DNA of 64,000 nucleotides from a virus (Duplodnaviria > Caudoviricetes): the IMG/VR virus record IMGVR_UViG_3300028832_000100; one strand, written 5' to 3'. The notes below the pieces were generated by a model. It had not been told where the DNA came from. It searched no databases and saw only the letters and a list, made by a program, of their open reading frames with translations. Shown piece by piece: positions 15,998 to 56,758 of the stretch; within the stretch, counting starts at the first letter, position 1; each line of letters starts with the position of its first letter. Both the position numbers and the translations under genes were made by a program.

Positions 15998-17272
15998 TTA
16001 GTCGTTTATATACAGATAGTCAGAAAGTTCATCTACTGCTTTTTCTTCAAAACTATCCATAATCTCTTTATAATATTTTTTTGATAAATTTTCTATATTG
16101 TCATAAACATAGGAAACTTCATCATATAAACTGTATGCTTTTTTTCCTACTTCTCCCCAATCTTCTTCGGTCATAAAATCCATAAGGATATTTACAACAT
16201 CATCTTCTGTTGTTTCAAGATCCCAATCGTATGTTTTTTCATCGTAGTTATTGTCAATTTTATCGTAGTGAACAAAAACTTTCCCGTCACCAGAAAAGGT
16301 AATCGGCGGGTTTTCATCATCCCACTCTACTCTATTCCATTTGTCGTGAAAATCTTCTTCAACATCTGTATCTTTCATATATTTATTTCTGAACATTTTT
16401 TCAGCTTCAATATCAAAATCACATTCAAAAGGCTCTTCTTCTACATCTTCTGCAACAGATTGTTGATTTCCAACCCCATTTCCATGATATTGCATAGAGT
16501 TAAAGATTGCGTTACCTATCTCGCAGTTTCCTGCATCTTTCTTTACAAAGATTTTTTTATCTTTTACAGATTCCACTGTAAGTTCTTTGTCTTGAATTTC
16601 TCTTTTATGATCTTTCAATTTTTCTAACATCCCATTATTTCTGAATTCTTTGAATACGAGGTTTCCTTCTCCAAACTCCCCATCGGTGGAAAGTGCGGAC
16701 TTCCTTAACAAGTAAAGGTCATCTATTGTTTTCTGAACCTCTTCCGAACTATCAGACTCAATAGCAGAAGTCACTTCCTCAAATTTTTCTTTATATAGTT
16801 CGTTTGTGTCTGGATCAAAATCAATATCAATATTTATCTTCTCTGGGAATTTAACCCATTCATTATTCATTAGTGAATAAATACCATTCGTAATTGCAGA
16901 AGAACTTCTGCTTTCAATATAAACCTCTACAGGAATACCTTTAACTGTAATCTTATGCTTTTTGTTAAAATCAGACTTTGCATAATTATATACAATTGTC
17001 AGAAGACCATTGCAATCAATATCATCCATATTTGCAATAATATGAACATCTATATCACTGTTGTCCGAATAGTTATAAGAAGCATTTGATCCTACAAGCC
17101 ATAAGTCCATCACTTCAATAGGAATATCATTTTCTTTAATGTCCTCTATGAAAGTATTTGCAATGTCAATAAGACCTTCTCTTACATCTTCTTTTAACAG
17201 ATCTTGTTCATCAAATAGTTTTGGATTTAATGTGTTGTGCGTTTCTAATGACTCATTCAAATTTTCTTCCAT
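15998..17272 (-). CDS. Pol-beta-superfamily nucleotidyltransferase domain plus acidic C-terminal domain, with LxE sites
   Basis: LVGSNASYNY...SDIDVH...PVEVY (GS, DxD, third acidic residue); N-terminal LNESLE. Confidence 0.7.
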   Translation of the reverse strand: MEENLNESLETHNTLNPKLFDEQDLLKEDVREGLIDIANTFIEDIKENDIPIEVMDLWLVGSNASYNYSDNSDIDVHIIANMDDIDCNGLLTIVYNYAKSDFNKKHKITVKGIPVEVYIESRSSSAITNGIYSLMNNEWVKFPEKINIDIDFDPDTNELYKEKFEEVTSAIESDSSEEVQKTIDDLYLLRKSALSTDGEFGEGNLVFKEFRNNGMLEKLKDHKREIQDKELTVESVKDKKIFVKKDAGNCEIGNAIFNSMQYHGNGVGNQQSVAEDVEEEPFECDFDIEAEKMFRNKYMKDTDVEEDFHDKWNRVEWDDENPPITFSGDGKVFVHYDKIDNNYDEKTYDWDLETTEDDVVNILMDFMTEEDWGEVGKKAYSLYDEVSYVYDNIENLSKKYYKEIMDSFEEKAVDELSDYLYIND

Positions 17273-19071: not shown

Positions 19072-21180
19072 TTATGAAGTAGCGGTACATCTGCAGTATA
19101 TCTCGTTCCCGTTCCCGACCGTTATAGGGTTTGTTTGGGTCTTTGCATCTGCGATTGTGGCATACCACACAGCGTTGTAAGTTCCGGAAGTATCCGTTGT
19201 TGGAAGTGCATCACCTACTGGATATGTTGCAAATCCTATTTTATATGCCATTGACGAAAACGGTGATCCGGTATAGTTTGCAAACGATTGAAAAGGTAAT
19301 AAATATGCACACCCGCTATCAACACCAGAAAAAGTATCTGGAAATACTACAATTGGGTTAGCCCAATTGAATCTCACTATTTGTAAGCCATAGCAGTATT
19401 CAAATTGTCTATTACCAGTAACTGTACCCATGCTGGTTACTGAACTTGGAATATTTATTGAATATAGATTTGTGCAGTTAGAAAAAGCTTGTGTTCCTAT
19501 AGAAGTTAGCCCGTCTGGAAGTTCTATGTTTGTCAACGAAATGCAGTTCGTGAAAGCACCTTGTCCGATAATCCGTAGTGATTGTGGTAGATGTATCGAA
19601 TGCAGTTTTAAGCAATCGTAAAAGGTATTTTGTTGAATAAAATCAATGCCTGTACCGAGCGTTACCTCCTCCAGTGAAGTATTTCCATAAAATGTGCTCG
19701 GAAGTATGGATGTTGTGTTGTTTGTAATTGACACACTTCTTATCTTTCTGCTATTTGTAAAAGCAGCCGGAAGAGATGTTACCCCACTCGGAACTTGTAT
19801 ATCTGCACTTATATTTGTTCCATTGAATGAACTCGACTCTATATTTGTGCATCCACTATTTATTGAGAAATTATCTACACCATCTAACGGGCAACCCTGC
19901 AGACATGAAGTACCAAAATTTGTGATATTATTTAATCCAACAATGTTGGAAAGTTGTGTGCAACCTGAAAACATACCGGTTGGCAAAACAGAGGTTAACG
20001 GCTTTAATACAGCATATATTAGAGATGTGCATGAACTGAAAGCGTTACTACCGTAAGTGGTGGATTGATAAGTAGACACATAGAATAAACAAGAACTTCT
20101 AAGTGATCTACAACCTGAGGCAATGCCTGTCGCTAATCCTTGTGCAGATACCCTTGACGAAAATGTTATATATTTTAGGTTTATACATCTACTGAAGCAG
20201 TAAGACGAGTACATATCGACCCAGTTATCTGTCCCAATGGAAACATATTTCACCCCGCTGTTATAAAAGCAATATTCCGCTATACGACCTGTTTGTCTCT
20301 TGCATACAAATGCTTTCAATGCATAACAATTATAAAAGGTATTTTTAGGAGTTGCTGTGCTGTCATACTGTGGACAAATAACCTCGCTTACACTTACTGC
20401 ATTGGCAAGTCCATAGTCACTATAGTAAATATATTGTCCGAAATAGACTTTTTTCAGAGATGATAAATAAACAGAGTTTGCATCCGTGTCTCCAGAATAC
20501 CTGGTGAACAGACCACATCTATGTCCACTACTAGATAAAGACACTGCACCGTTCAGAATCTTAACAGATATTATATAATCTCCAGTAGAGCTATATTCAT
20601 GTGTGTTTGAGAATGTAATGCTTGACCCCGTGCTATTCTCTATTACTACCTGTTGTGACCCGTCTCCCCAGTCCAAATATCCTTGCGTGTTCGGATATAC
20701 GTTTAGATAAATTGTCGGTGTTAATGCTTGACTCTCTGTAAGACTTATATAAAACCTACTTGCTCCATCATCGGTTGTGTATAATTGACCAACCACAACC
20801 ATAGCATCGGGGCAGTCAGTTAAATAATCTTTTATCTCTTGTAATGTCCAGTTCCAACCAAGAGCAGTCAAACCTGTATGAGACGGGTTGGCTGGCAATT
20901 CGGTCAGAGCAAGTGCTTGTGCTGTTGTGTATTGGTACAACTCTGTTCCTTCGTAGTCTATAAAAAGGCAACCAGAATCTTCTGACGAAACATATGCAAG
21001 AGAACCTGTTATTTTTTGTCCATTAACATAAGCGGTTTTTCCAGATAATATATCAGCAGAACTCGCGTTTGCATCACTTGTATCTACAAAATCGACATAT
21101 TGATCTGTATCGGTATCTATGGCTTCTATTTTTTGAACATCCGTATATTGAACGCCATCTATGGTTAGATTCTTGCTCAT
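19072..21180 (-). CDS. BspA-type leucine-rich-repeat adhesin / tail fibre
   Basis: DANASSADILSGKTAYVNG fibre motif, PKD-like segment (DWGDG), many IG-AF-C-L-I-IP repeats. Confidence 0.8.
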   Translation of the reverse strand: MSKNLTIDGVQYTDVQKIEAIDTDTDQYVDFVDTSDANASSADILSGKTAYVNGQKITGSLAYVSSEDSGCLFIDYEGTELYQYTTAQALALTELPANPSHTGLTALGWNWTLQEIKDYLTDCPDAMVVVGQLYTTDDGASRFYISLTESQALTPTIYLNVYPNTQGYLDWGDGSQQVVIENSTGSSITFSNTHEYSSTGDYIISVKILNGAVSLSSSGHRCGLFTRYSGDTDANSVYLSSLKKVYFGQYIYYSDYGLANAVSVSEVICPQYDSTATPKNTFYNCYALKAFVCKRQTGRIAEYCFYNSGVKYVSIGTDNWVDMYSSYCFSRCINLKYITFSSRVSAQGLATGIASGCRSLRSSCLFYVSTYQSTTYGSNAFSSCTSLIYAVLKPLTSVLPTGMFSGCTQLSNIVGLNNITNFGTSCLQGCPLDGVDNFSINSGCTNIESSSFNGTNISADIQVPSGVTSLPAAFTNSRKIRSVSITNNTTSILPSTFYGNTSLEEVTLGTGIDFIQQNTFYDCLKLHSIHLPQSLRIIGQGAFTNCISLTNIELPDGLTSIGTQAFSNCTNLYSINIPSSVTSMGTVTGNRQFEYCYGLQIVRFNWANPIVVFPDTFSGVDSGCAYLLPFQSFANYTGSPFSSMAYKIGFATYPVGDALPTTDTSGTYNAVWYATIADAKTQTNPITVGNGNEIYCRCTATS

Positions 21181-24163: not shown

Positions 24164-25822
24164 TTATTGAATTGCTTGAATCCTGCTTGCAAGAGATGCC
24201 CAGTTCGTAGCTGCTTGATATGTTGCTACAGAATCTGCCGGAACGTAAATAGGGCAGTCATTTGTACTGTCAAAAGCATTGGCTTCAGCGAGAGTAGGAG
24301 GGGTCGTAGCCCTAATGGTTATCCCTGTAAGAGATGTACAATTCTTAAATGCTTGGCTTTTGATTTGGGAAATTCCGGTTCCGATGTCAATACTTGTAAG
24401 CTGTCCATTCTGAAGGAATGCAGCAGTGCCTATGCTTGTTACGGTATTCGGAATCTTCAACTCCACAGCAAGCCTTTGACAGACCGAAAAAGAATAATCT
24501 CCTATTGTTACAAGTCCTTCAGATAATGTTAAAGATGTCATGTACTGGCAGCTATAAAATGCGTATTGACCAATAGAAATTATGCTTGACGGAATAAATA
24601 GACTTGTTATCGAATTATTATTTGTAAAACTGGAATTTCCAATATACTTAACAGGATTACCATCTATGCTGCTCGGGATTGCTATGGCAGTATCAGTACA
24701 AGTTCCGATTCCTGTAATGGTTGCTTCATTGCTGGAAACAGTGTACGCCAAACCTTCCGACGGAATTGGGAAAATTCTGCTTGCTATTGCGCTCCAGTTA
24801 GTCGCGGTTTTATAAGCGTTTAATGATGCTGCAGGGACATAGATTGGGCAGTTATTATTGAGATCAAATGCATTGGCGTTGTCCAGTGCAGGCGGTGTCG
24901 TTGCATGAATTGTTACGGAAGATACCCTACTGTATCTAAAAGCATAATATGCTATTGATGTAACACCGGTTCCAATCTCTACGGTTCTTGCTGAAGTATT
25001 TACACCATTTGCAAATGCATGACCTTCGATAGTCGTTACGCTATTCGGAATCTTAACATTTATGATAGCAGTTCCTCTAAATGCGCTGCTGTTTATTGTT
25101 TGTACCCCTTCAGAAATGATTGCTTCAGAAAGATTACTACAACCATCAAAAGCACGTATATACACGTCAGAAATTGTTGATGGGATATAAACTCCTGTAA
25201 TGGCTGTATTATACTGAAGGCACTCATCTCGCATGCTTGTAACAGGATATCCATTATAAGTGCTTGGAATAACTATAAATGTATCGGTACATGTTCCAAT
25301 CCCCTGTAGTATGGCTTTGTTGCTTGTAACAGTAAAGGAGAGACCTTCTGATGGAATCGGTTGAATACGAGAAGCAAGAGATGACCAGTTTGTTGCCGTT
25401 TTATAAGCGTCAAGAGATTGAACTGGTACATAGATTGGACAATTATTGGTACTATCAAAAGCGTTTGCATTACCAAGTGTCGGAGGATTCGTCGCATGAA
25501 TCGTGATGCTCGTAAGCCCTATACAACCGGTGAACGCCAAATTCTCAATGCTCGTGACGCTGTTCGGTATCGTGACGCTTGTCAGCCCTGTACAACCATA
25601 GAACGCAGAACTTCCAATGCTCGTAACTCCTGTCAAATCTTCTGCTGTAACAGTTGTAATACTGCGGTCAACAAGCTGTTGCAATTTATTATACGTACCT
25701 GTAACTTTTCCGTCAGCAGTATATGCTGTTTTACCGAGAAGAATATCAGCAGCCGTTGCTGTTGCGTCAGATGTATCGACTCCTGCTTTTAATGGAAGTG
25801 TTTTAGTTTTTAGTAAAGTCAT
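24164..25822 (-). CDS. BspA-type LRR adhesin / tail fibre with three repeated LRR-cap modules
   Basis: DATATAADILLGKTAY motif; three copies of TI-AT-PP-L...NCPIYVP...ATNW...ASRI. Confidence 0.8.
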   Translation of the reverse strand: MTLLKTKTLPLKAGVDTSDATATAADILLGKTAYTADGKVTGTYNKLQQLVDRSITTVTAEDLTGVTSIGSSAFYGCTGLTSVTIPNSVTSIENLAFTGCIGLTSITIHATNPPTLGNANAFDSTNNCPIYVPVQSLDAYKTATNWSSLASRIQPIPSEGLSFTVTSNKAILQGIGTCTDTFIVIPSTYNGYPVTSMRDECLQYNTAITGVYIPSTISDVYIRAFDGCSNLSEAIISEGVQTINSSAFRGTAIINVKIPNSVTTIEGHAFANGVNTSARTVEIGTGVTSIAYYAFRYSRVSSVTIHATTPPALDNANAFDLNNNCPIYVPAASLNAYKTATNWSAIASRIFPIPSEGLAYTVSSNEATITGIGTCTDTAIAIPSSIDGNPVKYIGNSSFTNNNSITSLFIPSSIISIGQYAFYSCQYMTSLTLSEGLVTIGDYSFSVCQRLAVELKIPNTVTSIGTAAFLQNGQLTSIDIGTGISQIKSQAFKNCTSLTGITIRATTPPTLAEANAFDSTNDCPIYVPADSVATYQAATNWASLASRIQAIQ

Positions 25823-28479: not shown

Positions 28480-29000
28480 TCGTCTGGCTTAAAGATTGTT
28501 TGTTTGATCGTTATTTCTTTCTTACTGTTAGAATCATTTTCATCATAAAGAGGATTGTCAAGTGTTCCTACAATAGAAAGGTCAATAAAGTATCTTCCTT
28601 TTGCCATTGCTTTTGAAAGGTCATCATAAATGAAGATTGCAACATTTACTGTTCCATCTTCATTGCAATGATAAACAGGATTGGCAGTATAGATACATTC
28701 ATATCTGAAATTGTAGATATGGAAATGTAATTCTTGCTTGCCATTACTCATATATGTTGCGATTGATTCTCTATAAGCAGAACTGTCATAAGTAACATCT
28801 CCGCTCAAAGTAAAATTCAGTACAACATTATCACCATACATCCAAGAATAACCAATCAACTCACCCTTTGCATTATACTCTTCAAGAGGTTTTACAGGCG
28901 GATAAGTGCCAAGTTGAGGTGGCTTCTTATTGATATTATTTGGAATGTAAGTGCTTGGAGTTGCATTAAAATTTGTAAACATATCCATTATATTATACAA
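28458..29000 (-). CDS. Hypothetical virion-region protein
   Basis: Open frame coupled to neighbours. Confidence 0.55.
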   Translation of the reverse strand: MYNIMDMFTNFNATPSTYIPNNINKKPPQLGTYPPVKPLEEYNAKGELIGYSWMYGDNVVLNFTLSGDVTYDSSAYRESIATYMSNGKQELHFHIYNFRYECIYTANPVYHCNEDGTVNVAIFIYDDLSKAMAKGRYFIDLSIVGTLDNPLYDENDSNSKKEITIKQTIFKPDECVVLVK

Positions 29001-30675
29001 ACTCCTTATCTATTTTTTCTTTGCCTACATCAATTTCTTCATAAGTTGGATTTAATTGAATTAGTAGACCTTCAAGTGTTCCGACATTTGCAGTTTCATC
29101 TGCAATGGTATTTTTCAAAGGTTCAAGGTATTCATCAAACCCTTCAAAATCAAATGTAGCCAGAGCACTGTTATATTGGTCAATTAAATTCCATTGCTGT
29201 TGGATTAGATCATGCAATACGGATGAAAGACCGCGAACTCTATCTTCTTCTGTTGGCTCTGTTTGTTTTACTTCCATTTCTTCCATATCTTCCTTTAATG
29301 ATTCATCTTTCCTGTCCCAATAAGAAAGTGCAACTGCATATCTTTGTTTTCTGTCTGGATATTCATCTTTTGTTACAGACATAAATCTGCTAATAAAATC
29401 TTTTTTAGATTCACCCTTATTAGGATATACTTCTGTAATGACACTTTCTTGGAGCGATTCATTAGACTGTTTTGGAATATCTCCGTCTGTGCAGTGGATT
29501 GTGTAGTTGCCGGTATCGTAGTTCCAATACGACCCACTTCTGATCGTGTTCCATTGATCAATTGTGCCTTGATAGGTGATGCTCATAAGCCCTGTACAAT
29601 AGTAGAACGCCAGACCGCCAATGATCATAATGCTATCCGGGATCGTTACGCTCGTAAGCTCTGTACAAACGGCGAATGCAGAAACTCCAATGCTCGTGAC
29701 ACTATCCGGGATTGTGACGTTTGTAAGCCCTGTACAACCGGGGAACGCACGCTCTCCAATGCTCGTGACGCCATCCGGAATCACCAAATCGGTTACCAAT
29801 TCCCCATTGAGATAGAGATTATGTGCATAATACAATGGGTTTGCAGAGGAGTTTCCAAACGAAATGCCGCACCATGCCGCAAGATCGGTAATATAAACGC
29901 TCGTAAGCCCTGTACAACCGGAGAACGCATCATATCCAATGCTAACAACACTGCTTGGGATTGTGATGCTCTCAAGCCCTGTGCAACCAGAGAATGCACC
30001 TTGACTTATTGCTGTGACGCTGTCCGGGATTTCAGCATTTTTTACATCCTTACTACACTTAATTAAAACATTATCTTTAATATAAAGACCATTGGTGTAT
30101 GAAATTGGCTTATATACACCCTTTATTTCAACCCCGTCAGGAATATAGTCTACCTCTTTATCTGTCTCGTCAAAGATTTCGTAATTCTTTCTATTTTCAG
30201 GATCGCTTGCGAGTGCGTATTTACGGTTATCTTTCTTGCTAATGAAAAAGTAAAACTCTATTCCTTTGTCTGTGTATTGTTTCCAATACTTATTTTCATT
30301 TTCGTCTTGAATCCAACCGGATTCTTTACCGGTGATGCACCATTTTGTGTTAGAACCGTACTTTTTAGCCGCTTCAAATGTGTTTATCTTATAAACTTTG
30401 TAATAATCGTTTTCAGCAACTAAATCAGCACCCTTTTTGGCTTCTTTATCTATTTGGGAGCGTGTCGGTGTTTCTTCGAGGGCATCCAATGCTTTTGTAA
30501 GCTCTTCCGGCTCTTTCTTTATCCAATAGTAGAGGTCTTTTTCCGCTCCCTTAAGACGGTCTTTTAATTTTAAGAATCTGTTTGCTTCTTCTTCACCAAC
30601 ATGAGCAATTAGTTTGTCTGTATCTGCTTTTGCTTCTGTTAGTAAATCTTCTTGAAGTAATTTTTTTATTTTCAA
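28993..30675 (-). CDS. Mosaic protein: N-terminal domain (GSNTKWCIT...YFFI), BspA LRRs, small basic domain, ferritin-like helix pair; LxE-delimited
   Basis: LQE/LTE at the N-terminus; NESLQESVITE and DESLKE at domain junctions. Confidence 0.75.
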   Translation of the reverse strand: MKIKKLLQEDLLTEAKADTDKLIAHVGEEEANRFLKLKDRLKGAEKDLYYWIKKEPEELTKALDALEETPTRSQIDKEAKKGADLVAENDYYKVYKINTFEAAKKYGSNTKWCITGKESGWIQDENENKYWKQYTDKGIEFYFFISKKDNRKYALASDPENRKNYEIFDETDKEVDYIPDGVEIKGVYKPISYTNGLYIKDNVLIKCSKDVKNAEIPDSVTAISQGAFSGCTGLESITIPSSVVSIGYDAFSGCTGLTSVYITDLAAWCGISFGNSSANPLYYAHNLYLNGELVTDLVIPDGVTSIGERAFPGCTGLTNVTIPDSVTSIGVSAFAVCTELTSVTIPDSIMIIGGLAFYYCTGLMSITYQGTIDQWNTIRSGSYWNYDTGNYTIHCTDGDIPKQSNESLQESVITEVYPNKGESKKDFISRFMSVTKDEYPDRKQRYAVALSYWDRKDESLKEDMEEMEVKQTEPTEEDRVRGLSSVLHDLIQQQWNLIDQYNSALATFDFEGFDEYLEPLKNTIADETANVGTLEGLLIQLNPTYEEIDVGKEKIDKEFV

Positions 30676-30774
30676 GGTTGTCTTCTCCTTGTCAATCTTA
30701 TGTGAATATGAACAGATAGGTTTCCACCCAATTTATGCTGAATGGAAACCTATATTTAGAATAATTCTTATTCT

Positions 30775-32553
30775 TTATTTAAGCAATCCCCAAGGATCGT
30801 CTTTAGTTCTTTTTCCTTCGTCTTTTGAAATATCTACAATGGTGTAATGATCTTTCCAAGTCTTATCTTTTCCATTGTCAGAAATAAAAGTTTCTGCTTC
30901 TTCTTCTGTTTCAAAAGTTGCTGCTCTATCAAAAGAACCTACATTATAATCTTTTGAAACATATTTTCCGTTTTCGTGCTTTACAGCATACTTACCTTTT
31001 TTAGCTTCTTCTTTGAGAGATTCTTCTTGAAAATCCTTGAAAATATGTCTGTAATAGGGTTCTCTTTTAAAGTTTGAAATCAATTCTTTAATAGAGGGAA
31101 ATAGATCAATAGTCCATTCCTTGAACCATTTATCTGGGTCTTGAGAAGCTCTTTCAAATTCGGACTTACCCATTAAAGCATATTTATTCTTGTACTTTGC
31201 AACAACCCAATTACCAGGCACCTTGACATTTGTTGCTTTCAAAACTGACTTTTCATCAGATTCTTTGAGAGATTCATTGGTGTCATCTTCGTCCTCATCA
31301 TCGTCTTCGTGACCTTCAAAGTGCTTACTATCAAAGTCATTCATACGACAGATAAATTCAAGGTACTCTCCAAGTTCATCTGTACCCATGGCTTGAACGA
31401 TCTGCTTGTTTACATCGTCTTCACCCCATGCTTCACACAATTCTTCATACAGATCCATTTCTTCACCGGGCTTTACTTGCCACCCATAGTTATCTTCTGT
31501 GAGTTTCTTTGATTCAGTTACTTTATCTTTCTTGTTAGGAGTGACCAAGAAGATAAGGTTTCCTTTTTCACCGACAACTTCATATCCTTTATTCACTAAT
31601 TCTCTAAGCTTTTTAAGATATCCCTTTTGTGATTTGTCAATGGTTTCCTTTTTATAGTAACCCTTGTTTTCTCCGCTCCCGCCACGCTTGTTGGCAACAG
31701 GTCTGCCAGTTTCGTCGTAAGTAACTCTTACATCTTTCAGAGGAGCTGGTTTATTAGGGACAGTGATTACAAGAACATCTGCATCCTTATCTTTTCTTTG
31801 AGAATAAGTAACACCCTCATCTGCATATCTACTAATAATGCTAATAGCAGGATCAAATGTAGTAATATATCTTGTTCTTTTTGCTTTTGCTTGTGATGCC
31901 TTTTCTGGATCAACAGTAATAGTAATGATGTTTTCATCAGAACCACCAACAGAACCAATTTGATTTACTGCATATCCAACACCACTGTTGCTAGAGAACT
32001 TTCCCCAAATATCATACTTGTCACCGTCAGCAGTCAACTGCGCGTAGATTTCATCAAAGAGGTCGTGATAAGTTTTACTGTCTGATGCTTTTCTTCTTGT
32101 CGGAGCGGTAATCTCTATATAATCATCTTTGATTTCTACGCTTGCTTCTGGATATTTTTTAGCCATTGAAACAGCAGTCTTTTTGTCTTCTTCATCATCA
32201 ATATAGAATTTCACAATACCGACAGTTTCATCTCTATTGTATGAAGTCTTTCTTTGATAATCTGGAAATTCGTGAGCGATTTCCCTGTACACATCAGTAA
32301 ACTCATCTACATACTCTTCTGTGTCTTCTTCAAGAGATTCAGACATATGTAATTTCTTCTTCGTAATGGATTTTACTTCTTTGTTTAATTTTTCGGTATC
32401 TTTAACAAAGTCTTCTGCTTCCTTGTCAAGTTCTTTGTTCACTTTGTCAGATTGCTCTTTGTGTGCTTCAGTTGCTTCAATAGTTTTCATAACATCTGGT
32501 GTAACAGTGCTATAAATTTCTTCTGCAAGTGTTTTACCTTTGCTTATTTTCAT
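30775..32553 (-). CDS. Acidic mosaic protein with LxE-delimited domains
   Basis: LAEE, MSESLEE, VTESKKLTE, NESLKES, EESLKEE. Confidence 0.75.
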   Translation of the reverse strand: MKISKGKTLAEEIYSTVTPDVMKTIEATEAHKEQSDKVNKELDKEAEDFVKDTEKLNKEVKSITKKKLHMSESLEEDTEEYVDEFTDVYREIAHEFPDYQRKTSYNRDETVGIVKFYIDDEEDKKTAVSMAKKYPEASVEIKDDYIEITAPTRRKASDSKTYHDLFDEIYAQLTADGDKYDIWGKFSSNSGVGYAVNQIGSVGGSDENIITITVDPEKASQAKAKRTRYITTFDPAISIISRYADEGVTYSQRKDKDADVLVITVPNKPAPLKDVRVTYDETGRPVANKRGGSGENKGYYKKETIDKSQKGYLKKLRELVNKGYEVVGEKGNLIFLVTPNKKDKVTESKKLTEDNYGWQVKPGEEMDLYEELCEAWGEDDVNKQIVQAMGTDELGEYLEFICRMNDFDSKHFEGHEDDDEDEDDTNESLKESDEKSVLKATNVKVPGNWVVAKYKNKYALMGKSEFERASQDPDKWFKEWTIDLFPSIKELISNFKREPYYRHIFKDFQEESLKEEAKKGKYAVKHENGKYVSKDYNVGSFDRAATFETEEEAETFISDNGKDKTWKDHYTIVDISKDEGKRTKDDPWGLLK

Positions 32554-32559
32554 TTGTAA

Positions 32560-35391
32560 TCAAATCCCCTTTATATCAACTTCATCATCTTCCGCAGAAC
32601 CATAAACAGTATCATCTACTTTATTCGTTCCATCATTAACAGAAACATTTACAGATACGCTTGACTCATCAAGTTTCTTTTCTTCTTCGACAGGTTCTTC
32701 TGGTGTGTCTACTAACTCAATGTCAACACCATCAGGAAGATCGTCTTCACAAGAGCAGTTTTTCTTGTCACCAAGTTTTACAACTCCATCAAGCATTTCA
32801 TCAGGTGTCTTTTCAAGAACATAGTCAACAATATCATCATCGTCAATAGAACCGTTTTCTAATGACTTTCTGATTTTTCTTTCGTTCTCTCTGTCTTCTT
32901 TAGTAGGCTTTCTAACAGGCTCTCTATCAATATTTACAAGTCTTCTTTGAATATTTCTTCTGCGAACAGGATTTACAGAATCATCCGTAGGATATTCGTC
33001 GTCAATAGAATCGGTAGGATATTCATCATCTGTAATTTCTTCCCCATACCAAGAAATGTCATCATCTACATGATATGACTCTCCGAGGTCACTATCAAAA
33101 TACTCTTTTGATCTTTCCTTGTCAAGTTTTCTCCGCTCCTGCGCTAATGACCATGCACTTTCACCACATTTCGAGCAATATTGATCTCCATCCTCTGTGT
33201 ACTCTAATCTCTTTCCACAAATAGGACAATAAGTCATATCACCGCCGTAAATACCTGCAAGTTCAAAATCATCATATTCATCATCCCATGATTCATTGAC
33301 TTTTTGTTTCGACTCAACAACAGCATTCTCTATTTCTCCAATGCTTTCTTCTTCGCCTTTTTCAAGTTGACCTTGTGCTTCAACTTCACCAGATTTAATC
33401 TTTACAGTGTCGGAAGAAAGAGTTTCAAGTGCTTTCTGAAGTTGTCCTACATGAACGTTTTCTTCCTCAACAATGTCTTGAATGACAGGAATAATATCTT
33501 TATACTTATCACCAGATTCATTAGAAAGAATGGTAATGATATTGTTATAAAGAGAAATCGTCTTCCACTCATCCTCAATCGCTGTAATGATGTTATCAGC
33601 AACGAAGTTTTCTTCACCATTTTCAGGAGTTAAACTTTCTTTCAAGTTATTTTCAAATCTCCTCTCCACCTCAGCAGCTACCCTATCAAAGACTTGATTG
33701 TCGAGGTTTTTACCTAGGAGCGAACCAATGTCACTATTATTCGATAGAGCGTTTCTTACCTTACCAAATGTTACTTCTTTGTCAATATCTTCTACTTGGT
33801 AATCATCCGGGTAGGTCTTTTTGTACCAAGAGTAAATCGTTTCGTCCGCACGGTTCTTGCTTTCTTCAAGGGATTCTCCCCACTTCGCTCCACGCTTTTT
33901 ATTTGCAAACATTGCCTTTCTCTGTGCGTCTGCTTCTTTCTTTGTTTTGAAAGTACCGTGAGTACCTTCTTTACCTTTATTAGTCCATTTACCAGACTTT
34001 GTTTTTACAGTGTCTTCTTTAACAGATTTATTGATGGACTCCTCAATTATTTCACCAGTTTTATTGTTAAACTTGTATGTTTCTCCATCAATTTTTACTA
34101 AATCTACATCAGCAGCCATGCCAATCCACTCATACTTACGTGGCGATCTTCTGAATTTTTTATTATAAGATGCAAGGTACTTCTTCATTTCTTGTGGAAC
34201 GAATGGTTTTCTGCCATACTCCACTATCTTTATATCATCATACAAGGATGAGTCTACTTCTTTTGCATATTCTTCGGCATCTTCTTTTGAATTATCGTTG
34301 TTCAAGGAAGAAAATCTCTTGATAGTTTTATAGGTATTATCACTTAAATCCCTACCATAAACAGAATATCCAAAATCTTCTTTGAGAGAATCTTTTGTTA
34401 ATGTGGATTCGTCAGAAGCGTTGTCTACAAAATCTAAATTGTTTGGATGTGCCAGAAATGAATTATCTTTGAATCCCATAAAATCTCTGGTGTCATCTGC
34501 TTCAATATCAAACACCTCTAAAGTACCCTGCCACCCTTTGTCTTTAATGATGCCGGTTCTTCCAATGTTTCTCTCACCGCCAGATGTCCATCCGTCATTG
34601 TTTACATATTTTACTCTATCCCCTTTAATAAAAACCCTATATGGTTTCCTCTGACTAAGTGGTGCACTCTCTGATACATTCTTTCTTCTCTCTTTAATCT
34701 TATCAAGAAGATGATCCTTTGTCAGTGGTTTTGCTTTCTTTAAGAAGACAAGATTTTTATCATCATTATACATATTGTGTATAATTTCATCAAAAGACGC
34801 AACATCAAAACCAGATTCACCTACTGTTGATTTGTCATATCCCCAAGCATTTCTTCCACCGTTAGAAATGAAAATGGGTTCTCCGGCATCATAAAGTTTT
34901 CTTGCCTCTTCTTTATCTATTTTGCGAAGGTCTTCTTTTATATTTCTATTTCTCATCATTTTTGAATTTCCTCTACTTAATACTTCCTCTATCAGTTTTT
35001 CTTTCAACTCTATTCCTTCTTCATCTTGCTTTATGTTAAGAAGATTTAATGAAATATTCGTTTTAGACGGATTTACTATTTCTTTGTACTTCAAACTCTT
35101 AAACACATCAATGGCATTTGCATTTATAAGTTCTTTTACATATTCGTCATTATTCATATTCATTTCACTACTTTTGAACTTTTTGTGAATTGAACTATTC
35201 CAGTTTTTCTTACTAATATAATTTGGAAGAAGAATTATGTTTCTAACTCTGTTGTCTTCGTGAACACCATTTTTGTGATGAATAATAAATTCGGTACTAT
35301 CTGGATAATATTTACAGTATAAACCTAATAGGTCACAAATAAACTGCCGAAGAGATGTTTCCCCTCTATATTTAGATTCGTTAAGAAACAT
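32560..35391 (-). CDS. Large mosaic protein (HNH-like, SH3/KOW-like, ferritin-like, Zn-ribbon modules), LxE-delimited; probable start MFLNE at 35391
   Basis: HHKNG-H-DN-N; FIKGDRVKYV; EDEW...EEENVH; CPIC...CSKC; more than 10 (L/I/V)xE(S/D) junction motifs; ORF track extends the start to 35466. Confidence 0.75.
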   Translation of the reverse strand: MFLNESKYRGETSLRQFICDLLGLYCKYYPDSTEFIIHHKNGVHEDNRVRNIILLPNYISKKNWNSSIHKKFKSSEMNMNNDEYVKELINANAIDVFKSLKYKEIVNPSKTNISLNLLNIKQDEEGIELKEKLIEEVLSRGNSKMMRNRNIKEDLRKIDKEEARKLYDAGEPIFISNGGRNAWGYDKSTVGESGFDVASFDEIIHNMYNDDKNLVFLKKAKPLTKDHLLDKIKERRKNVSESAPLSQRKPYRVFIKGDRVKYVNNDGWTSGGERNIGRTGIIKDKGWQGTLEVFDIEADDTRDFMGFKDNSFLAHPNNLDFVDNASDESTLTKDSLKEDFGYSVYGRDLSDNTYKTIKRFSSLNNDNSKEDAEEYAKEVDSSLYDDIKIVEYGRKPFVPQEMKKYLASYNKKFRRSPRKYEWIGMAADVDLVKIDGETYKFNNKTGEIIEESINKSVKEDTVKTKSGKWTNKGKEGTHGTFKTKKEADAQRKAMFANKKRGAKWGESLEESKNRADETIYSWYKKTYPDDYQVEDIDKEVTFGKVRNALSNNSDIGSLLGKNLDNQVFDRVAAEVERRFENNLKESLTPENGEENFVADNIITAIEDEWKTISLYNNIITILSNESGDKYKDIIPVIQDIVEEENVHVGQLQKALETLSSDTVKIKSGEVEAQGQLEKGEEESIGEIENAVVESKQKVNESWDDEYDDFELAGIYGGDMTYCPICGKRLEYTEDGDQYCSKCGESAWSLAQERRKLDKERSKEYFDSDLGESYHVDDDISWYGEEITDDEYPTDSIDDEYPTDDSVNPVRRRNIQRRLVNIDREPVRKPTKEDRENERKIRKSLENGSIDDDDIVDYVLEKTPDEMLDGVVKLGDKKNCSCEDDLPDGVDIELVDTPEEPVEEEKKLDESSVSVNVSVNDGTNKVDDTVYGSAEDDEVDIKGI

Positions 35392-35419
35392 CTCTTCCTG
35401 TTCCAATAAATATTCTGTA

Positions 35420-37504
35420 TTATTTTGCAAGGTTGTACTCTTTGTAAAGTTGCTTCTTTTCTGCATAGTCTATTAAATGATATTTATATTGTGTGTCTAT
35501 AAAAGCTTTAATATAGTCAATATTTGTCACATTTTTCAAGTGTGTTCTTATTTCATTGACCATATTATCAGAATCTAAATTGGTATAAATTTTTGTGTCT
35601 TCTTTGAGAGATGGTTTTACAGCAAATGTCCAATGTGAAGTATTCACTCCATCAAGCCCATCCCCATCATCCGAGGTCACAAACTCATGGTCTGGGTCTT
35701 CCGCGACACCAACTTCATAAATTCTATATCCTTCTTGATTAGGCTTTCTATTGATGCTTACAACAGTACCTTTTTTGAAAGAATCACCGATTCTTGGAAA
35801 TTCATTTATACTGATTATTTGTGCATTTCCAATAAATTTAAGGTCATCTGTTTCCTCTTTCAAGGCACCTTTTTCCATCTTATTAAGCCTATCATAATAA
35901 TCAGGAATTTCAAAGAGGTGGTCAAGAGCAATTCTTTCTGCTTTCTTTTCATCATCAGTATGCTCTTTCTCTACTTTAATACCTTTTTGAAGTTGTGCTT
36001 TAATATCTTCTACTGATACATTATGCTTTTTAGCAATATCTTCAACAGACATATTATTGGAGATTCCTTCTTTCATAGAATCAGTAACTACACCTTTTCT
36101 GGTCTTATTTCTTAAAGAACGATAATCAGAAGGGACTTCTGTATAGCCAGCATCCTTGATTAAGTCAACAATGTCCTCATACTCTTGACGATTCTTTAAT
36201 TCAATATCCGCTCTACCCATAGAGAATTCACCACGTTCAAATGTCTTATCTCTATTGTTAATGCGAAGTTCTTGAATAGTATAATTATAAGGATTTCTTA
36301 CAATCATATTTTGAATGTCATGTGAACCGAGTTTGAATCCACGAGGAAATTTTGTTCTTTTTTCTTCTTTTAGAGCATCATTTATAATAGACCAATCATA
36401 TCCACCTATAAGCCAACCGCCTACTTCATCAGAAACCGCATCTGAAATTTTGTCATGGAAGTATTCATCATCATCCTGTGGATCATCGGATGGAATATGA
36501 TCTGTTTTGATTTCTACAACAATCTCATTTGGGAGCGATTCTTCAATTTCTTCAATCTTTTTCTCGCAGGCTTCTATATAGTCAGCGTGATTAGCAAAAT
36601 CTTCTTCATTAAAATATTCTGCTACATCCTCATCTGTGATGTCCCAATCCATATTGAATACTTTTACTTTTACGGTGTCGTCTTCTATTCTATTTGCATC
36701 TTCTTCAATAGCAAACTTATCCTCTACAACATCATCGATGATATATTTTCTGTCAGAAATCTTTTCTGCTTTATCCCCATATTTTTTAAGGATTCTTTCT
36801 GTTTCTTTTCTGTTCTTTGCAATATATGGGTTTGATCCAGACTTAAATCTGAAAAGAACCCACTTATCTTCTACTGACTCACCAATAGGTTTAGGATCTC
36901 TGTGCATATAAAGAACAGCAATGGCATCATTACCATTACTCATAATCTTATAGTAATCAGTCATATGCTTCCAATCAGCATCTTCTGGAAGGAAGTGTTC
37001 AAACCACATTCCCCATCCTTCATATTCAGGATCATTCTTGAAGTCTTCAAAACTTCCTTTATAAATATCAAAAGTTCCGCGAGGAGTTCTTAATTTTTCT
37101 TGTGTGATCTTTTCGCCAACAGACTCATTCGTATCTTCACATTTATTTGCTTCATCAAGACCAATGTTGGAATCTTCTTCCTCATCTTCTAATGAATAGG
37201 AATCAAACCACTCTTGTGCGCTTTCTTCTGACTCTGATTCCCAGTCATAATATTCAGGATCTCCGTAGTCTACATCGGAAGAGAAGTAGAATCTATGCAA
37301 ACCTTTTTTTGGATTCTTATACCACATATATGCATCTCTGAAACCGTCCTTGTCATAGACATCCTTGCTTGCCACATATTCCCATCCATGACTTTCAAGA
37401 GTTTCATTGTCAAAGTCATCTTCGGTCATGTCAAAATGATCTGCTGCTTCTTCCTCACCGGGAATATCAAAATCTTCATTTAATATATATTTCTCTTTAC
37501 TCAT
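35420..37504 (-). CDS. Acidic mosaic protein with DUF5661-like domain, LxE-delimited; probable start MSKEK at 37504
   Basis: GIKVEKEHT...IALDHL-EIPDYY; ILNED, LDEA, IGES, IEED, LKEE, MKEG, LKEE, LKED; GAGG RBS. Confidence 0.75.
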   Translation of the reverse strand: MSKEKYILNEDFDIPGEEEAADHFDMTEDDFDNETLESHGWEYVASKDVYDKDGFRDAYMWYKNPKKGLHRFYFSSDVDYGDPEYYDWESESEESAQEWFDSYSLEDEEEDSNIGLDEANKCEDTNESVGEKITQEKLRTPRGTFDIYKGSFEDFKNDPEYEGWGMWFEHFLPEDADWKHMTDYYKIMSNGNDAIAVLYMHRDPKPIGESVEDKWVLFRFKSGSNPYIAKNRKETERILKKYGDKAEKISDRKYIIDDVVEDKFAIEEDANRIEDDTVKVKVFNMDWDITDEDVAEYFNEEDFANHADYIEACEKKIEEIEESLPNEIVVEIKTDHIPSDDPQDDDEYFHDKISDAVSDEVGGWLIGGYDWSIINDALKEEKRTKFPRGFKLGSHDIQNMIVRNPYNYTIQELRINNRDKTFERGEFSMGRADIELKNRQEYEDIVDLIKDAGYTEVPSDYRSLRNKTRKGVVTDSMKEGISNNMSVEDIAKKHNVSVEDIKAQLQKGIKVEKEHTDDEKKAERIALDHLFEIPDYYDRLNKMEKGALKEETDDLKFIGNAQIISINEFPRIGDSFKKGTVVSINRKPNQEGYRIYEVGVAEDPDHEFVTSDDGDGLDGVNTSHWTFAVKPSLKEDTKIYTNLDSDNMVNEIRTHLKNVTNIDYIKAFIDTQYKYHLIDYAEKKQLYKEYNLAK

Positions 37505-37516
37505 TTTATACCTCAA

Positions 37517-38149
37517 TCAGTTTGTTTGATAAGCATAGTATTCAATGTAGCCATCTTCGTCTGCAAGTTCATGCTCCGCTCCATCATAACCTGCAAGGAA
37601 GTGACCGCGACCATCCCATTTGATACATTCATCTACGATCTTTTGAATATCATAAGAATTGGTTTCTTTAACAAGTCTTGCTACTTCTTCTTTGCCAAAA
37701 TTGTCCTCAATATATCCAACATAGTCATCTACTTCATCGAAGAGTTTTTCTGCAAGTTCATCTTGAATACTACTATAAAGATCATCATTTTCCAGATCTT
37801 CACCAGTTGTTCCTTCTTCTACAATATCAAGACGAATCGCTTCTTCTGCCATGCGATCTTTATCATAGTCAAGAGTATCATAGACATAATTTTCTATATC
37901 TTCTTTTACAATATCATAAAAGAAATCTTCATCAACAGCATTTTCATAAATCCAATCTTGAAATTCTGGGGTGAACCCTTCGATCCCAGCATCATCAATA
38001 AAAGATTCAATATAATCTTTTGTAGCTTCGTCTGCTTCTGCTTCCGTAAATACTTTATACTCTGCATCTTCGGTTTCAAAGGTATCATCGTCATACCCTT
38101 GTTTAACTTCAACTCCGAGGTATTTTTCAAGTGCTTCTTGTTTAGTCAT
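37517..38149 (-). CDS. Highly acidic protein, possible DNA mimic/anti-restriction
   Basis: Very D/E-rich; DGRGHFLAGYDG motif; own sigmaA promoter. Confidence 0.55.
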   Translation of the reverse strand: MTKQEALEKYLGVEVKQGYDDDTFETEDAEYKVFTEAEADEATKDYIESFIDDAGIEGFTPEFQDWIYENAVDEDFFYDIVKEDIENYVYDTLDYDKDRMAEEAIRLDIVEEGTTGEDLENDDLYSSIQDELAEKLFDEVDDYVGYIEDNFGKEEVARLVKETNSYDIQKIVDECIKWDGRGHFLAGYDGAEHELADEDGYIEYYAYQTN

Positions 38150-38179
38150 TTTTATAAATCTCCTTTGTGATTTTTATAT

Positions 38180-38208
38180 ATTATATCACAAGTTTTTTCT
38201 TTTGTCAA
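38180..38208 (-). promoter_or_regulatory. sigma70/sigmaA promoter
   Basis: TTGACA-17bp-TATAAT with TG extension. Confidence 0.8.
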
Positions 38209-38236
38209 TAGTTTTGTAAATTTTTTCAAAACATTT

Positions 38237-38833
38237 TTAATCATCGTCACAGAACAAGAATTTATAAATGTCTGCTTTTGTCAGCCAACTTATACCAAAA
38301 AAGAATAAGGCAACGGCTTCAATAAGCCATGTCTTAATGTAAAAATCTGGCAATAAAAATAATAGGAATGATCCTAACATTCCAATACCGCAAACTATAT
38401 AAATAATATTTCTGATTTTCTTTTTCTTTGTAGGATATCCGTCAGACTTTGTAAATAAGAACAAGGAACTGAGTGATAACAGCGCAAAGAAACATGCTGC
38501 ACAAACATTGTGAATAATTCCACTAACTTCTACTGGAAGATTGAATGTACCCACTCTTACAAATAATTCTGTCTCACAAGGGAACAAACAAATACCAATG
38601 CCAAAAATACCAGAAGCAGTAAATATAATGTCATCAAGAACAGAATACCCCTTATAACAAATAAGGAGTATTCCGGCTGATCCAAGAACTATCATAAATA
38701 CTGCAACGGCATTGGTGTAATATGTGGAAGAAATCGAAGGTGGAAATCCACCTGTAATAAGAACAACCAACCAAGGAAGAAAAATACCAAGCCAACCAAG
38801 AGTTGCTCTAAGTCTTTTTGTATTTACACCCAT
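38237..38833 (-). CDS. Multi-pass membrane protein (DUF998-like)
   Basis: About six hydrophobic helices; SISSTYY, H, E motifs. Confidence 0.6.
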   Translation of the reverse strand: MGVNTKRLRATLGWLGIFLPWLVVLITGGFPPSISSTYYTNAVAVFMIVLGSAGILLICYKGYSVLDDIIFTASGIFGIGICLFPCETELFVRVGTFNLPVEVSGIIHNVCAACFFALLSLSSLFLFTKSDGYPTKKKKIRNIIYIVCGIGMLGSFLLFLLPDFYIKTWLIEAVALFFFGISWLTKADIYKFLFCDDD

Positions 38834-38854
38834 AATAGTTACATCTTCTTTCTA

Positions 38855-39898
38855 TTATTCTTTTCCTTTATTGGCATTATTGTACCATTTCTCATAAATA
38901 TCATCATAAGAAATTCCAGTAATATCAGAAAGTTTATCAAACAGTCTTTCTCTTATAATAGAATCCTTAACACCGATGACTTCATACACATCCGCTCCGT
39001 CATTGATTGCTTTCAGAAGATCATCAAAGGTTGCTTCTTCATTGATTTCATATCCGGCTTCATCGTTGGGAAAAGCATCAACATACCAAGTTCTTAATTT
39101 GATTGTTGTTGGAGCGGTTTGTTCCTGCTCATCTGCCTCAACCTCAATTTCATCTGCCTCATTCAGAGATTCATCTACATCATCTTTTTCATAGATAACT
39201 TCTCTTTCGGTATCAAAACTGTCAATGTCGAAGTCTCCGTTGGAATCATAGTAGTATTTTGCTTTCTCTACATAAGAACCAACACCGTGCTCTTTACACT
39301 CTTTCACAGCTTCTTCTTCTGTGTCATATTCATCTACAAGGTCGCTATCTTCATCATAGACAATATATTGAGTATCAAAGTTTTCACCTTGTACTGCTTT
39401 ATCTACATACTTGATGATTCTTTCGTCTGTAACTTCTGCATCGATAGCAGCAACAAAGTTTGCATTATCGATATAGAAATAATTGTAATCAGTTCTCTTT
39501 GCATTCTTCAAAGAATCTTCAACAGAGCAAATTGAACCGTCCCAAGTAGTATGTGACCAACCGCCACCATAGATAAAATCAATAGATCCACCATTAAGAT
39601 CATCAATAACAATTTCTGTAAGTGCATCCAGATCTTTTACAAGTTTATCTGCACTGATATCATAATAGTTATTATATGTAAGAAGTGCTTTCTTAACAAC
39701 AAAGTCAACATCTTCAATTTCTTCTGTACTATACATATAAGAAGATGCTCTTAATGAACCTGCCTTACCTCTCATGTCGCAATCACAAAGAATAAGAGGA
39801 TCTCCGAGATAATCTTTTCCGACAACCTCTGCTTTTGTAACTTTACCTTCTACATAAATATCTTTTGATGTAATTTTATATCCTGCTCCTGCACCCAT
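38855..39898 (-). CDS. Acidic two-part protein; C-terminal domain shared with 32560..35391
   Basis: DESLNEA junction; WY-x3-P-D...I-x2-E-x-TF domain also present in 32560..35391. Confidence 0.7.
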   Translation of the reverse strand: MGAGAGYKITSKDIYVEGKVTKAEVVGKDYLGDPLILCDCDMRGKAGSLRASSYMYSTEEIEDVDFVVKKALLTYNNYYDISADKLVKDLDALTEIVIDDLNGGSIDFIYGGGWSHTTWDGSICSVEDSLKNAKRTDYNYFYIDNANFVAAIDAEVTDERIIKYVDKAVQGENFDTQYIVYDEDSDLVDEYDTEEEAVKECKEHGVGSYVEKAKYYYDSNGDFDIDSFDTEREVIYEKDDVDESLNEADEIEVEADEQEQTAPTTIKLRTWYVDAFPNDEAGYEINEEATFDDLLKAINDGADVYEVIGVKDSIIRERLFDKLSDITGISYDDIYEKWYNNANKGKE

Positions 39899-39928
39899 CT
39901 TTTATATACCTCCAAGTAATAATCAATC

Positions 39929-40303
39929 TTATTCTTCCTCTGCAAAGATGTCAAATAATTCATCAGGAATATCAAGTTGATTGTAGTCGTCTTCCATTGC
40001 ATCTACAATCTCATCTGCATAATCTCTACAATCCATTGCAAGTCCGATTGTATCTCTGGATTCCAGATTTCCGTAAGCATTGAAGTGAATATAATCATCT
40101 CCCCAATTTCTAATATCTCCGAAGAATGTTGCTCTTGCTGCTTCATAGGGATCAGTAAAATAAACATGGAAGAATTCTTCATCAAAAGGTTGATAGTCAA
40201 GATTATCTAAATTTCCATTGTAAGAATTGATCTCTTGAACTAACGAGATAATGTCTTCATCATCCATATTCTTGATAAATTCGATTGCTTTTTCCTTATT
40301 CAT
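39929..40303 (-). CDS. Small acidic protein, possible DNA mimic
   Basis: P-EAARA-FFG...DDYIHFNAYGNLES; strongly acidic. Confidence 0.6.
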   Translation of the reverse strand: MNKEKAIEFIKNMDDEDIISLVQEINSYNGNLDNLDYQPFDEEFFHVYFTDPYEAARATFFGDIRNWGDDYIHFNAYGNLESRDTIGLAMDCRDYADEIVDAMEDDYNQLDIPDELFDIFAEEE

Positions 40304-56119: not shown

Positions 56120-56194
56120 TGGAGCGAGTAGAGGGAATCGAACCCTCATCCGAGGTTTGGAAAACCCCTATAATAGCCATTATACGATACCCGC
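56120..56194 (-). tRNA. tRNA-Gly(TCC)
   Basis: Cloverleaf, encoded CCA. Confidence 0.9.
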
Positions 56195-56354
56195 GAGTAA
56201 GAGGTTTTTACATTGCCATCCCATGATTCAGAATGATTATCATCATACCTATTAAAGCTCTTACGGCTTATACAATGTCTGACGTAGGTAAAACCAGAAA
56301 AATCCTCGATTTCAAGCTACAATTTACTCCACAGCCCGTTCCGTGGACGAACGA

Positions 56355-56429
56355 TGGTTCCCCACAGAGGAGTCGGACCTCCGTCACAAGAGCCACAATC
56401 TTGGGTTCTACCGTTGAACTAGTGAGGGA
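56355..56429 (-). tRNA. tRNA-His(GTG), atypical acceptor end
   Basis: CAAGA-TTGTGGC-TCTTG anticodon arm; CCA; lacks G-1/C73. Confidence 0.75.
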
Positions 56430-56600
56430 ATATTGAAAGCTGTTTGGTCGCCTTACTACGGATTGGTACCTACCCGTTTTCACCTCTGATTATAACTTAA
56501 CCAGAACTCCCTTTACTTCTCGTTTCTAGGTTGAGATACGCATTCCTCTTTCTCTATACCGATTTCAGGCTTTAATGTCGTGGGAATGTTCTGCGAAAGC

Positions 56601-56676
56601 TGGTGTGCTCTCGGGGAGTCGAACCCCGGACACACGGATTAAAAATCCGCTGCTCTACCATCTGAGCTAATGGCAC
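56601..56676 (-). tRNA. tRNA-Lys(TTT)
   Basis: Cloverleaf, CCA; two acceptor-stem mismatches. Confidence 0.85.
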
Positions 56677-56683
56677 AAGGGAT

Positions 56684-56758
56684 TGGCACGGCGTACAGGA
56701 CTCGAACCCGTATTAGTAGGTCCGTAGCCTACTGTCCTCTCCGTTAGACGAACTCCGC
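56684..56758 (-). tRNA. tRNA-Arg(ACG)
   Basis: Cloverleaf, CCA. Confidence 0.88.

Follow-up and report, generated by a model that had tools for sequence, protein, structure and literature searches.

In bacteriophage T4, the capsid-targeting sequence is one short cleavable leader found on unrelated cargo proteins. The T4 proteins IPI-III and Alt carry this sequence and are processed by gp21, the protease that cuts T4 head proteins after L/I-x-E (PMC9026906, PMC3012670). In the giant phages phiKZ, 201phi2-1 and SPN3US, ejection and inner-body proteins are processed by the prohead protease at A/S/G-x-E (PMC10052503, PMC5694885, PMC7411985). A third group, the polyvalent proteins of phages and conjugative elements, have many domains and are predicted to travel with the DNA, and their proteolytic release has been proposed (Iyer et al. 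2017, PMC5512222). The stretch of viral DNA considered here (IMG/VR record IMGVR_UViG_3300028832_000100; Duplodnaviria, Caudoviricetes; 64,000 nucleotides, hereafter the window) encodes an array of large proteins at 28993-39898 that are built from unrelated modules separated by sites of the gp21 type. We think it likely that four of them (proteins A, B, C and D) represent internal head proteins of the T4 type that have been concatenated, are loaded into the prohead and are cut by a gp21-type protease. Protein X1, encoded elsewhere in the window, is probably another such precursor, and protein G of the array is less clearly one. The principle is already known from T4 IPI-III and Alt; the new element is the concatenated polyprotein form, and our literature search found no description of strings of independent modules separated by prohead-protease sites.

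An earlier note on this DNA, made from the letters alone, described five large open reading frames (ORFs) at 28993-39898. All five exist as described and lie on the minus strand, like all genes of the region; the phage genome is AT-rich, with ~35% G+C. Their layout is as follows, with lengths in amino acids (aa) and a slash marking the expected cut.

28993-30675, minus strand: protein A, 560 aa; leader M-KIKKLLQE (30649-30675), N-terminal domain phrog_28193 (aa 32-175), BspA-type leucine-rich repeats (LRR; aa ~200-400), site ESLQE/S (29446-29457), a 52-aa basic module, site ESLKE/D (29290-29301)
28996-29289, minus strand: C-terminus of protein A, a degenerate module resembling encapsulated ferritin (EncFtn)
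30775-32553, minus strand: protein B, 592 aa; leader MKISKGKTLAE, coiled N-terminal segment, doubled site MSE/SLEE/D (32326-32337), a 271-aa module, an acidic module, site ESLKE/S (31261-31272), an 84-aa module, site ESLKE/E (31009-31020), and a last module ending in the conserved tail KRTKDDPWGLL
32560-35391, minus strand: protein C, 943 aa from the Met at 35391 (968 aa from 35466, from which the ORF is open); short leader MFLNE/S at the first in-frame Met after the stop of D, then an HNH-like module and further modules
Within protein C, minus strand: sites DSLKE/D (34378-34389) and KSVKE/D (34015-34026), basic DTVK module (33862-34014), site ESLEE/S, a 75-aa module, EncFtn-like module (33313-33636), Zn-ribbon module (33079-33291), and an acidic tail ending DDEVDIKGI
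35420-37504 or 37516, minus strand: protein D, 694 or 698 aa; leader MSKEKYILNE/D (37475-37504)
37151-37504, minus strand: lead domain of protein D (residues 5-122), conserved and acidic, followed by five further modules, among them DUF5661 (35855-36067) framed by DSMKE/G (36068-36079) and GALKE/E (35855-35866); site PSLKE/D at 35600-35611
38855-39898, minus strand: protein G, 347 aa; consists of two acidic modules with the doubled site VDE/SLNE/A (39158-39169) between them; N-terminal leader absent

These proteins are strings of independent modules, a conclusion supported by several computations. A phmmer search with protein C against 1.84 billion representatives gave 1095 matches, nearly all of which span one or a few segments of C. 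The segments are ~22-139 (HNH-like), 221-356, 358-475, 475/481-525/537 (a very common basic 50-residue module starting DTVK), 605-705 (ferritin-like), 724-790 (Zn ribbon) and 800-938, and many of the matching proteins are stand-alone proteins of 65-160 residues. In the AlphaFold (AF2) model of C, built from 84 sequences, ORF residues 465-555, 595-715, 745-795 and 845-895 are predicted confidently, and the sites at ORF residues 484, 535, 610, 718/725 and 796 fall in loops or dips of the predicted local distance difference test score (pLDDT) between these confident blocks; the N-terminal half of C has a pLDDT below 50. Two sites frame the DUF5661 module of D exactly, and 21 viral contigs resemble D in this module and nowhere else. 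In the same viral-contig scans, the D query gave only DUF5661, and B and a protein labelled H gave no matches.

Evidence that the sites coincide with module borders came from a comparison of homology end-points with per-protein circular shifts, counting the end-points that lie within 8 aa of a strict site. The fraction near a site was 59% for A against 8% in the null (p <0.001), 50% for B against 14% (p 0.011) and 58% for C against 19% (p <0.001). For D, a relaxed motif gave 61% against 30% (p 0.04). The earlier note had proposed testing for enrichment of the motif at domain boundaries; the sites do lie at such borders, most clearly in A, B and C. This per-protein test and a test of cassette junctions replaced a first, pooled test on all BLAST end-points of the homologue set, which had given an enrichment of ~1.8-fold.

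The sites themselves share more than the gp21-type core. When [LIVM]-x-E is listed in the five proteins, a longer word recurs, E-S-L-K-E followed by D, S, E or A. By 2000 composition-preserving shuffles of the five proteins, 0.9 copies of [DE]S[LIVM].E are expected, and 11 are present (z 10; 12-fold). S[LIVM].E is present 16 times against 4.3 expected and [LIVM].ES 17 times against 4.4, while control words stay at expectation (E.[LIVM]S, 5 against 4.3; T[LIVM].E, 3 against 3.6; S[LIVM].K, 6 against 4.1). The five array proteins contain 3.5 copies of [DE]S[LIVM].E per 1000 aa, a density 14-fold above the 0.25 of 63 other window proteins. The enrichment extends to the scaffold-like tail of the protease gene, to X1 and, to a lesser degree, to X2, a second protein encoded outside the array. 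In 149 independent homologues, the doubled form [LIVM].ES[LIVM].E was found 77 times against 2.1 expected, and the reversed and Asp controls were found 5 times each. The ESLKE-type motifs reported by the earlier note are a real and repeated feature of these proteins. Its description of them as often doubled is typical of the relatives and does not hold for the five window proteins, where only 2 of 16 sites are doubled (MSESLEE in B and VDESLNE in G); in the window as a whole the doubled form is rare, occurring in B, G, X1 and the protease tail.

The presumed cutting enzyme and the portal are encoded elsewhere in the window.

9213-10805, minus strand: prohead protease, presumed to cut the array proteins; N-terminal domain (aa 34-180) homologous to T4 gp21
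11846-13825: portal protein of the T4 gp20 type (Pfam Portal_T4, E 3e-36)

The first 180 residues of the protease match Pfam Peptidase_S77 (PF03420; E 1.4e-12), PHROG 207 (E 1.9e-30) and the T4 gp21 structure 5jbl (E 2.5e-6), and His (GEFGHP) and Ser (GVSSRG) are present at the aligned catalytic positions. The remaining ~350 aa form a coiled-coil, scaffold-like tail that is dense in [LIVM]xE/S sites, in line with the earlier remark that the motif riddles the scaffold. This fusion of protease and scaffold-like tail takes the place of a separate gp22-type scaffold gene, and a relative, locus L024, has the same layout (754-2340). By these matches, the window comes from a myophage distantly related to T4, with a portal of the gp20 type and a prohead protease of the gp21 type (S77). 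Its nearest cultured phages are Streptococcus phage vB_SagM-GXN1, Listeria phage LIS04 and Bacillus phage SP-15, with a portal identity of only ~30%.

Further support for the main reading came from the N-termini. A site lies within the first 16 residues in 80 of 154 homologues, compared with 16% of internal windows, and the P1 position peaks at residue 6-7. Within the window, 6 of 7 candidates have such a site (taking C from the Met at 35391) and 14 of 64 other proteins do. The leaders M-KIKKLLQE, MKISKGKTLAE, MSKEKYILNE and MFLNE of A, B, D and C are not the only ones of this kind, as stand-alone homologues of three unrelated module types carry M-[KR]-x-x-[LIV]-x-E directly before the module. 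Stand-alone EncFtn-like homologues start M-K-x-I-L-N-E-D-L-F-D-D, homologues of the DTVK module start MKIIKE/DTVK or MKLIRE/DTVK, and those of the HNH-like module start MRFRLVE/..LDE/AHYRGETSLRQ. The proposal that most of these proteins have LxE near the N-terminus holds for A, B, C, D, X1 and X2, and fails for G. These data support the view that a leader ending in [LIVM]xE is common to unrelated cargo, which would follow the logic of the T4 capsid-targeting sequence.

The modules are also exchanged among relatives, as whole units. The closest homologues (P0002-P0012) are 45-60% identical to the array proteins in the common parts and combine and order modules of B, C and D differently, with junctions reading LDE/SLKE/, VDE/SLKE/, VRE/SLKE/, MEE/SLKE/ and LDE/SINE/. 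P0010, for example, consists of DUF5661 from D, the module at C 243-356, the module at B 440-500 and the DTVK module, and P0006 has D-type and C-type modules in one ORF. Homologues of B differ from it by whole modules bounded by sites and have its C-terminal tail in common. The G homologue of relative L022 is 72% identical to G over residues 1-248, an identity that stops at DESLxE; there follow an extra module and then the common last module. The lead domain of D (residues 5-122), for which the Protein Atlas gave no usable match, heads several polyproteins in relatives and in L024 lies in a gene beside the head genes. The earlier note had proposed comparing module order in relatives, and this comparison finds the same modules shuffled and whole modules swapped at sites.

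Together, these findings suggest a mechanism. The leader (M, basic residues, [LIVM]-x-E) would direct each precursor to the prohead's scaffolding core, much as T4 IPI-III are brought there by their capsid-targeting sequence. During head maturation, the protease encoded at 9213-10805 would cut after Glu in E-S-L-K-E before D, S or A, which would remove the leader and free ~25-30 modules of ~50-400 residues from the four leader-bearing proteins. The freed modules would stay with the DNA and enter the host, or would leave the head. Because the same short linker bounds every module, modules would be exchangeable, which would account for the shuffled architectures in relatives; they could be gained, lost and moved between cargo genes without disturbing loading or release. 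The earlier interpretation as effector polyproteins is partly supported: computation shows independent modules, gp21-type sites at junctions, a gp21-family protease, a common leader and modules swapped at sites, and it is by inference that cleavage, packaging, ejection and a function of the modules, such as anti-defence or host takeover, are proposed.

The parallels with T4 IPI-III and Alt are a gp21-family protease, a leader of ~10 residues ending in hydrophobic-x-Glu, and cargo genes outside the core head operon; cleavage after Glu would likewise be expected inside the prohead. One difference is that in T4 one gene yields one mature protein by one cut, whereas here a protein has up to ~ten modules with internal sites at the junctions. 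The site is also extended, with Glu at P5 and Ser at P4, and is often doubled in relatives. Moreover, the modules are mostly acidic and not basic, and no Pfam or PHROG match links them to IPI, IPII, IPIII or Alt.

Several observations weigh against this reading, and some of them lend themselves to other explanations. The motif was chosen after inspection of the sequences, so the p-values are optimistic, though the effect is large; it was for this reason that the count was redone on the 149 homologues. When all homologues, including more distant ones, are taken together, a strict site is found within 3-8 aa of only 15-24% of cassette junctions (2- to 3-fold over the null), which means either that distant phages use other linkers or that the BLAST end-points are blurred. 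No cultured relative was found by megablast of the region or by tblastn of C against cultured phages, and the T4 late promoter TATAAATA is not enriched (12 against 7 expected).

A further such point concerns the leaders: G has none, and that of C is only 5 residues long. The absence of a leader in G would fit a scheme in which the polyproteins are cut in the cytoplasm by some other host or phage protease and are never packaged. We regard this as very improbable, given that scans of the array and its neighbours showed no further peptidase domain, that the leader of the other proteins resembles the T4 capsid-targeting sequence, and that the array shares its strand with the block of virion genes in which it lies.

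The nucleotide sequence of the sites raises a different difficulty. The exact 12-mer TCTCTCAAAGAR, which encodes S-L-K-E, is present at five junctions in the window (2799-2810, 31009-31020, 31261-31272, 34378-34389 and 35600-35611) where 0.05 are expected, and its flanks are unrelated; in it Leu is written CTC, a rare codon that occurs at 6 of 13 sites against a share of 7.8% overall (p 2e-4). Such identity would be expected if the motif were a recombination joint or a flexible linker that is not cut, with the proteins acting as intact multidomain proteins of the polyvalent kind. The relatives speak against this: they write the site with both Ser codon families (TCN and AGY) and five Leu codons, and the 12-mer is absent from all 31 of their loci. 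The variety of codons indicates that selection acts on the peptide, while the identity within one genome indicates that some process at the DNA level acts too; it suggests duplication of the linker or gene conversion, may be a trace of microhomology-mediated module exchange, and may help module shuffling. DNA-level analysis of junctions covered ten metagenome loci. In addition, the motif ends the leaders of single-module proteins, where a joint would be needless, fits the specificity of the protease family and is dense in the protease's own scaffold-like tail. Like polyvalent proteins, the array proteins are encoded with virion genes on a mobile element and belong to a pattern of 2 to 15 unrelated domains per polypeptide. 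Polyvalent proteins, however, have hallmark domains (MPTase, ArdA/ArdC, methylase, SNF2, ParB, ART) and built-in peptidases, none of which was found in Pfam scans of the whole proteins and of 20 single modules, and release here would be by a trans-acting prohead protease at a repeated linker. Overall, an uncut linker or joint seems improbable to us.

The last point concerns composition, as most predicted fragments are acidic, unlike the basic internal proteins of T4. This would be natural if the precursors were loaded and cut, and most of the fragments then served as assembly aids (core filler, modulators of size or pressure, or propeptides) that are degraded or expelled at DNA entry, with few or no delivered effectors. 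Strongly acidic modules resemble scaffold fragments, the modules gave no match to any domain known for anti-defence or host takeover, and T4 gp22 is a similar case. In SPN3US, long N-terminal propeptides carry several protease motifs and undergo repeated cleavage, after which most of their mass is gone from the head (PMC10052503). The giant phages offer a parallel: many of their head proteins are cut by a gp21-related protease, several at multiple sites, and they package and eject a large mass of protein, as is proposed for the array. In giant phages, however, multiple cuts destroy a long N-terminal propeptide and leave one mature C-terminal protein, whereas here each segment is a conserved, independent module; the P3 preference here is Leu, not Ala, and the substrates are without homology. 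We consider the assembly-aid explanation unlikely, since the modules are conserved, folded and found standing alone with a leader in many phages, one of them is a probable EncFtn homologue with intact metal ligands, and simple filler needs no such diversity of conserved folds.

Among the proposed cargo is the EncFtn-like module of C (33313-33636, residues 611-718). Its AF2 module model is a two-helix half-ferritin fold whose hairpin has a pLDDT >90. Foldseek with this model gave 5n5e (probability 1.00, template modelling score 0.67-0.71), 7s8t and 5da5/6suw as top matches, with an E-value of 0.035 at best, and the top matches of both models were 5n5e, Myxococcus xanthus EncB/EncC and Rhodospirillum rubrum EncFtn (probabilities 0.96-1.00). 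A profile of 34 sequences, searched against the PDB, matched Pyrococcus furiosus 5n5e (E 4.8e-4) and the EncFtn-encapsulin fusion 2e0z (E 7e-4), and the hidden Markov model alignment to 5n5e places EE-x-HVG on EE-x-HVG. The ligand positions E34, Y41 (+7), E70 and H73 (Glu-x-x-His) are invariant or nearly so in the 34 sequences; in the degenerate copy that ends A, Gln and Asn occupy ligand positions. Pfam gave a weak Rubrerythrin match (E 0.017) and no EncFtn-specific model at E ≤0.5. On this evidence, the module of C is a probable EncFtn homologue with its predicted metal ligands intact. A two-copy prediction scored 0.44 against 0.16 for the best control, with at least 86% of contacts common to the runs and a partner pLDDT of at least 67, and the ligand residues lie in the predicted dimer interface. 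Of 30 solved homo-pairs, 20 attain the score mark, as does 1 of 23 single chains; interpretation of this pass is confounded by the fact that EncFtn dimers are already solved, so that it may reflect likeness only.

The module thus parallels EncFtn cargo (5n5e/2e0z of P. furiosus, 5da5 of R. rubrum, EncB/EncC of M. xanthus) in its half-ferritin fold, its ligand pattern and its presumed place inside an HK97-fold shell. It differs in that it has no C-terminal encapsulin targeting peptide and sits between protease sites or behind a phage leader; the window has no encapsulin gene, and its only HK97-type shell is the phage capsid. Dozens of stand-alone EncFtn-like homologues in other phages carry a leader like the capsid-targeting sequence. 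Tentatively, T4-like phages of anaerobic gut communities may load a library of swappable enzymes and binding modules, EncFtn among them, into the capsid as polyproteins through one universal grammar of leader and linker. Virus heads would then serve as cargo compartments much as encapsulins do, and the loading of encapsulin cargo and of viral internal proteins would share ancestry or cargo; we consider this possibility less likely than not.

Among the domain labels given earlier, LRR_5 (E 1e-36), DUF5661 (E 8e-19), the ferritin-like domain (as EncFtn-like) and the very acidic segments stand; SH3-like was not confirmed, the model being poor. The Zn-ribbon and HNH labels both fall under the Pfam cut-off (Zn ribbon, 23.7 bits against a cut-off of 25; HNH_3, E 6e-4), and the CPxC...CxxC motif of the former is present. 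The DTVK module is strongly basic and has a weak DUF2188 match (E 0.11). When PDB sequences were searched with C and D by phmmer, no useful match emerged, and the Pfam scans of whole proteins and 20 single modules recognized no domain known for anti-defence or host takeover. Accidental fusion of a homing endonuclease was considered as the origin of the HNH-like module that begins C and was rejected as the main explanation, as stand-alone homologues of this module have the cargo leader, with a site directly preceding the conserved YRGETSLRQ start. The sole hint of anti-defence is an ArdA gene (Pfam E 4e-34) beside a related array, at 8600-9325 of the 70-kb contig L028, directly upstream of a cargo gene with the lead domain and itself without the cargo leader.

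If cleavage and packaging do occur as proposed, the protein cargo of phage heads would be much larger and much more exchangeable than the T4 model implies. The grammar of leader and E-S-L-K-E linker could then serve to recognize virion cargo in metagenomes and to bring foreign proteins into capsids, and the specificity of an uncultured gp21-type protease would be defined. A genuine virus capsid would contain an encapsulin-type ferritin, a point of interest for how HK97-fold viruses and encapsulins are related in evolution, and the array would be a source of new small folds acting at the first moments of infection.

Four further genes lie beside the array or outside it and bear on its extent.

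37517-38149, minus strand: protein E, 210 aa; very acidic, no strict site; adjoins D also in L022
38237-38833, minus strand: membrane protein F, 198 aa, between G and E; four to six helices, weak DUF998/DUF7103 match
1443-3272, minus strand: protein X1, 609 aa; leader MANYIAE/A, doubled site LGE/SLKE/G, many [LIVM]xE/S sites
15998-17272, minus strand: protein X2, 424 aa, phrog_36119; N-terminal LNE/S, acidic, few internal sites

Protein E is a neighbour of the array and itself no polyprotein. Gene F is absent from the otherwise syntenic relative L022, which suggests that it is an insertion into the array, likely a moron, and not cargo. X1 sits in the head module, has a syntenic counterpart in L024 and is a probable further substrate of the protease; X2 is a weaker candidate.

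Two C-terminal tails are conserved. KRTKDDPWGLL(K/M) is found in B (30778-30813) and its homologues and is preceded by LDE/S in P0152 and P0153, and DD(E)VDIKGI is found in C (32563-32589), P0003 and P0006. These tails may be second address or anchoring peptides. The ORF of C overlaps the end of D by 47 nucleotides, and TATAAATA is present at 35481-35488. In P0006 and others, the lead domain, D-type and C-type modules and the tail of C are all in one ORF. D and C look like possible halves of one ancestral gene, with the split coinciding with the HNH-like start of C.

The window also has 15 transfer RNA genes arrayed on the minus strand (56120-57731 and 62463-62706), among which no suppressor was seen. 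The major capsid gene is in pieces (window 4195-9247), with fragments at 8984-9247, 7210-7929 and 5931-6158 and a GIY-YIG endonuclease ORF amid them at 6355-6984; in L024 the gene is intact and encodes 440 aa. The major capsid protein, an obligate substrate of such proteases like the scaffold, has an [LIVM]xE site near its N-terminus, ITE/A in exon 1 of the window and VAE/S in L024, which adds to the case that the motif is a cleavage site. Two large proteins, at 19072-21180 and 24164-25822, share an N-terminal phrog_38337 segment and C-terminal BspA-type LRR_5 repeats and are probably tail fibre or receptor-binding proteins; repeats of the same LRR type are found inside cargo protein A.

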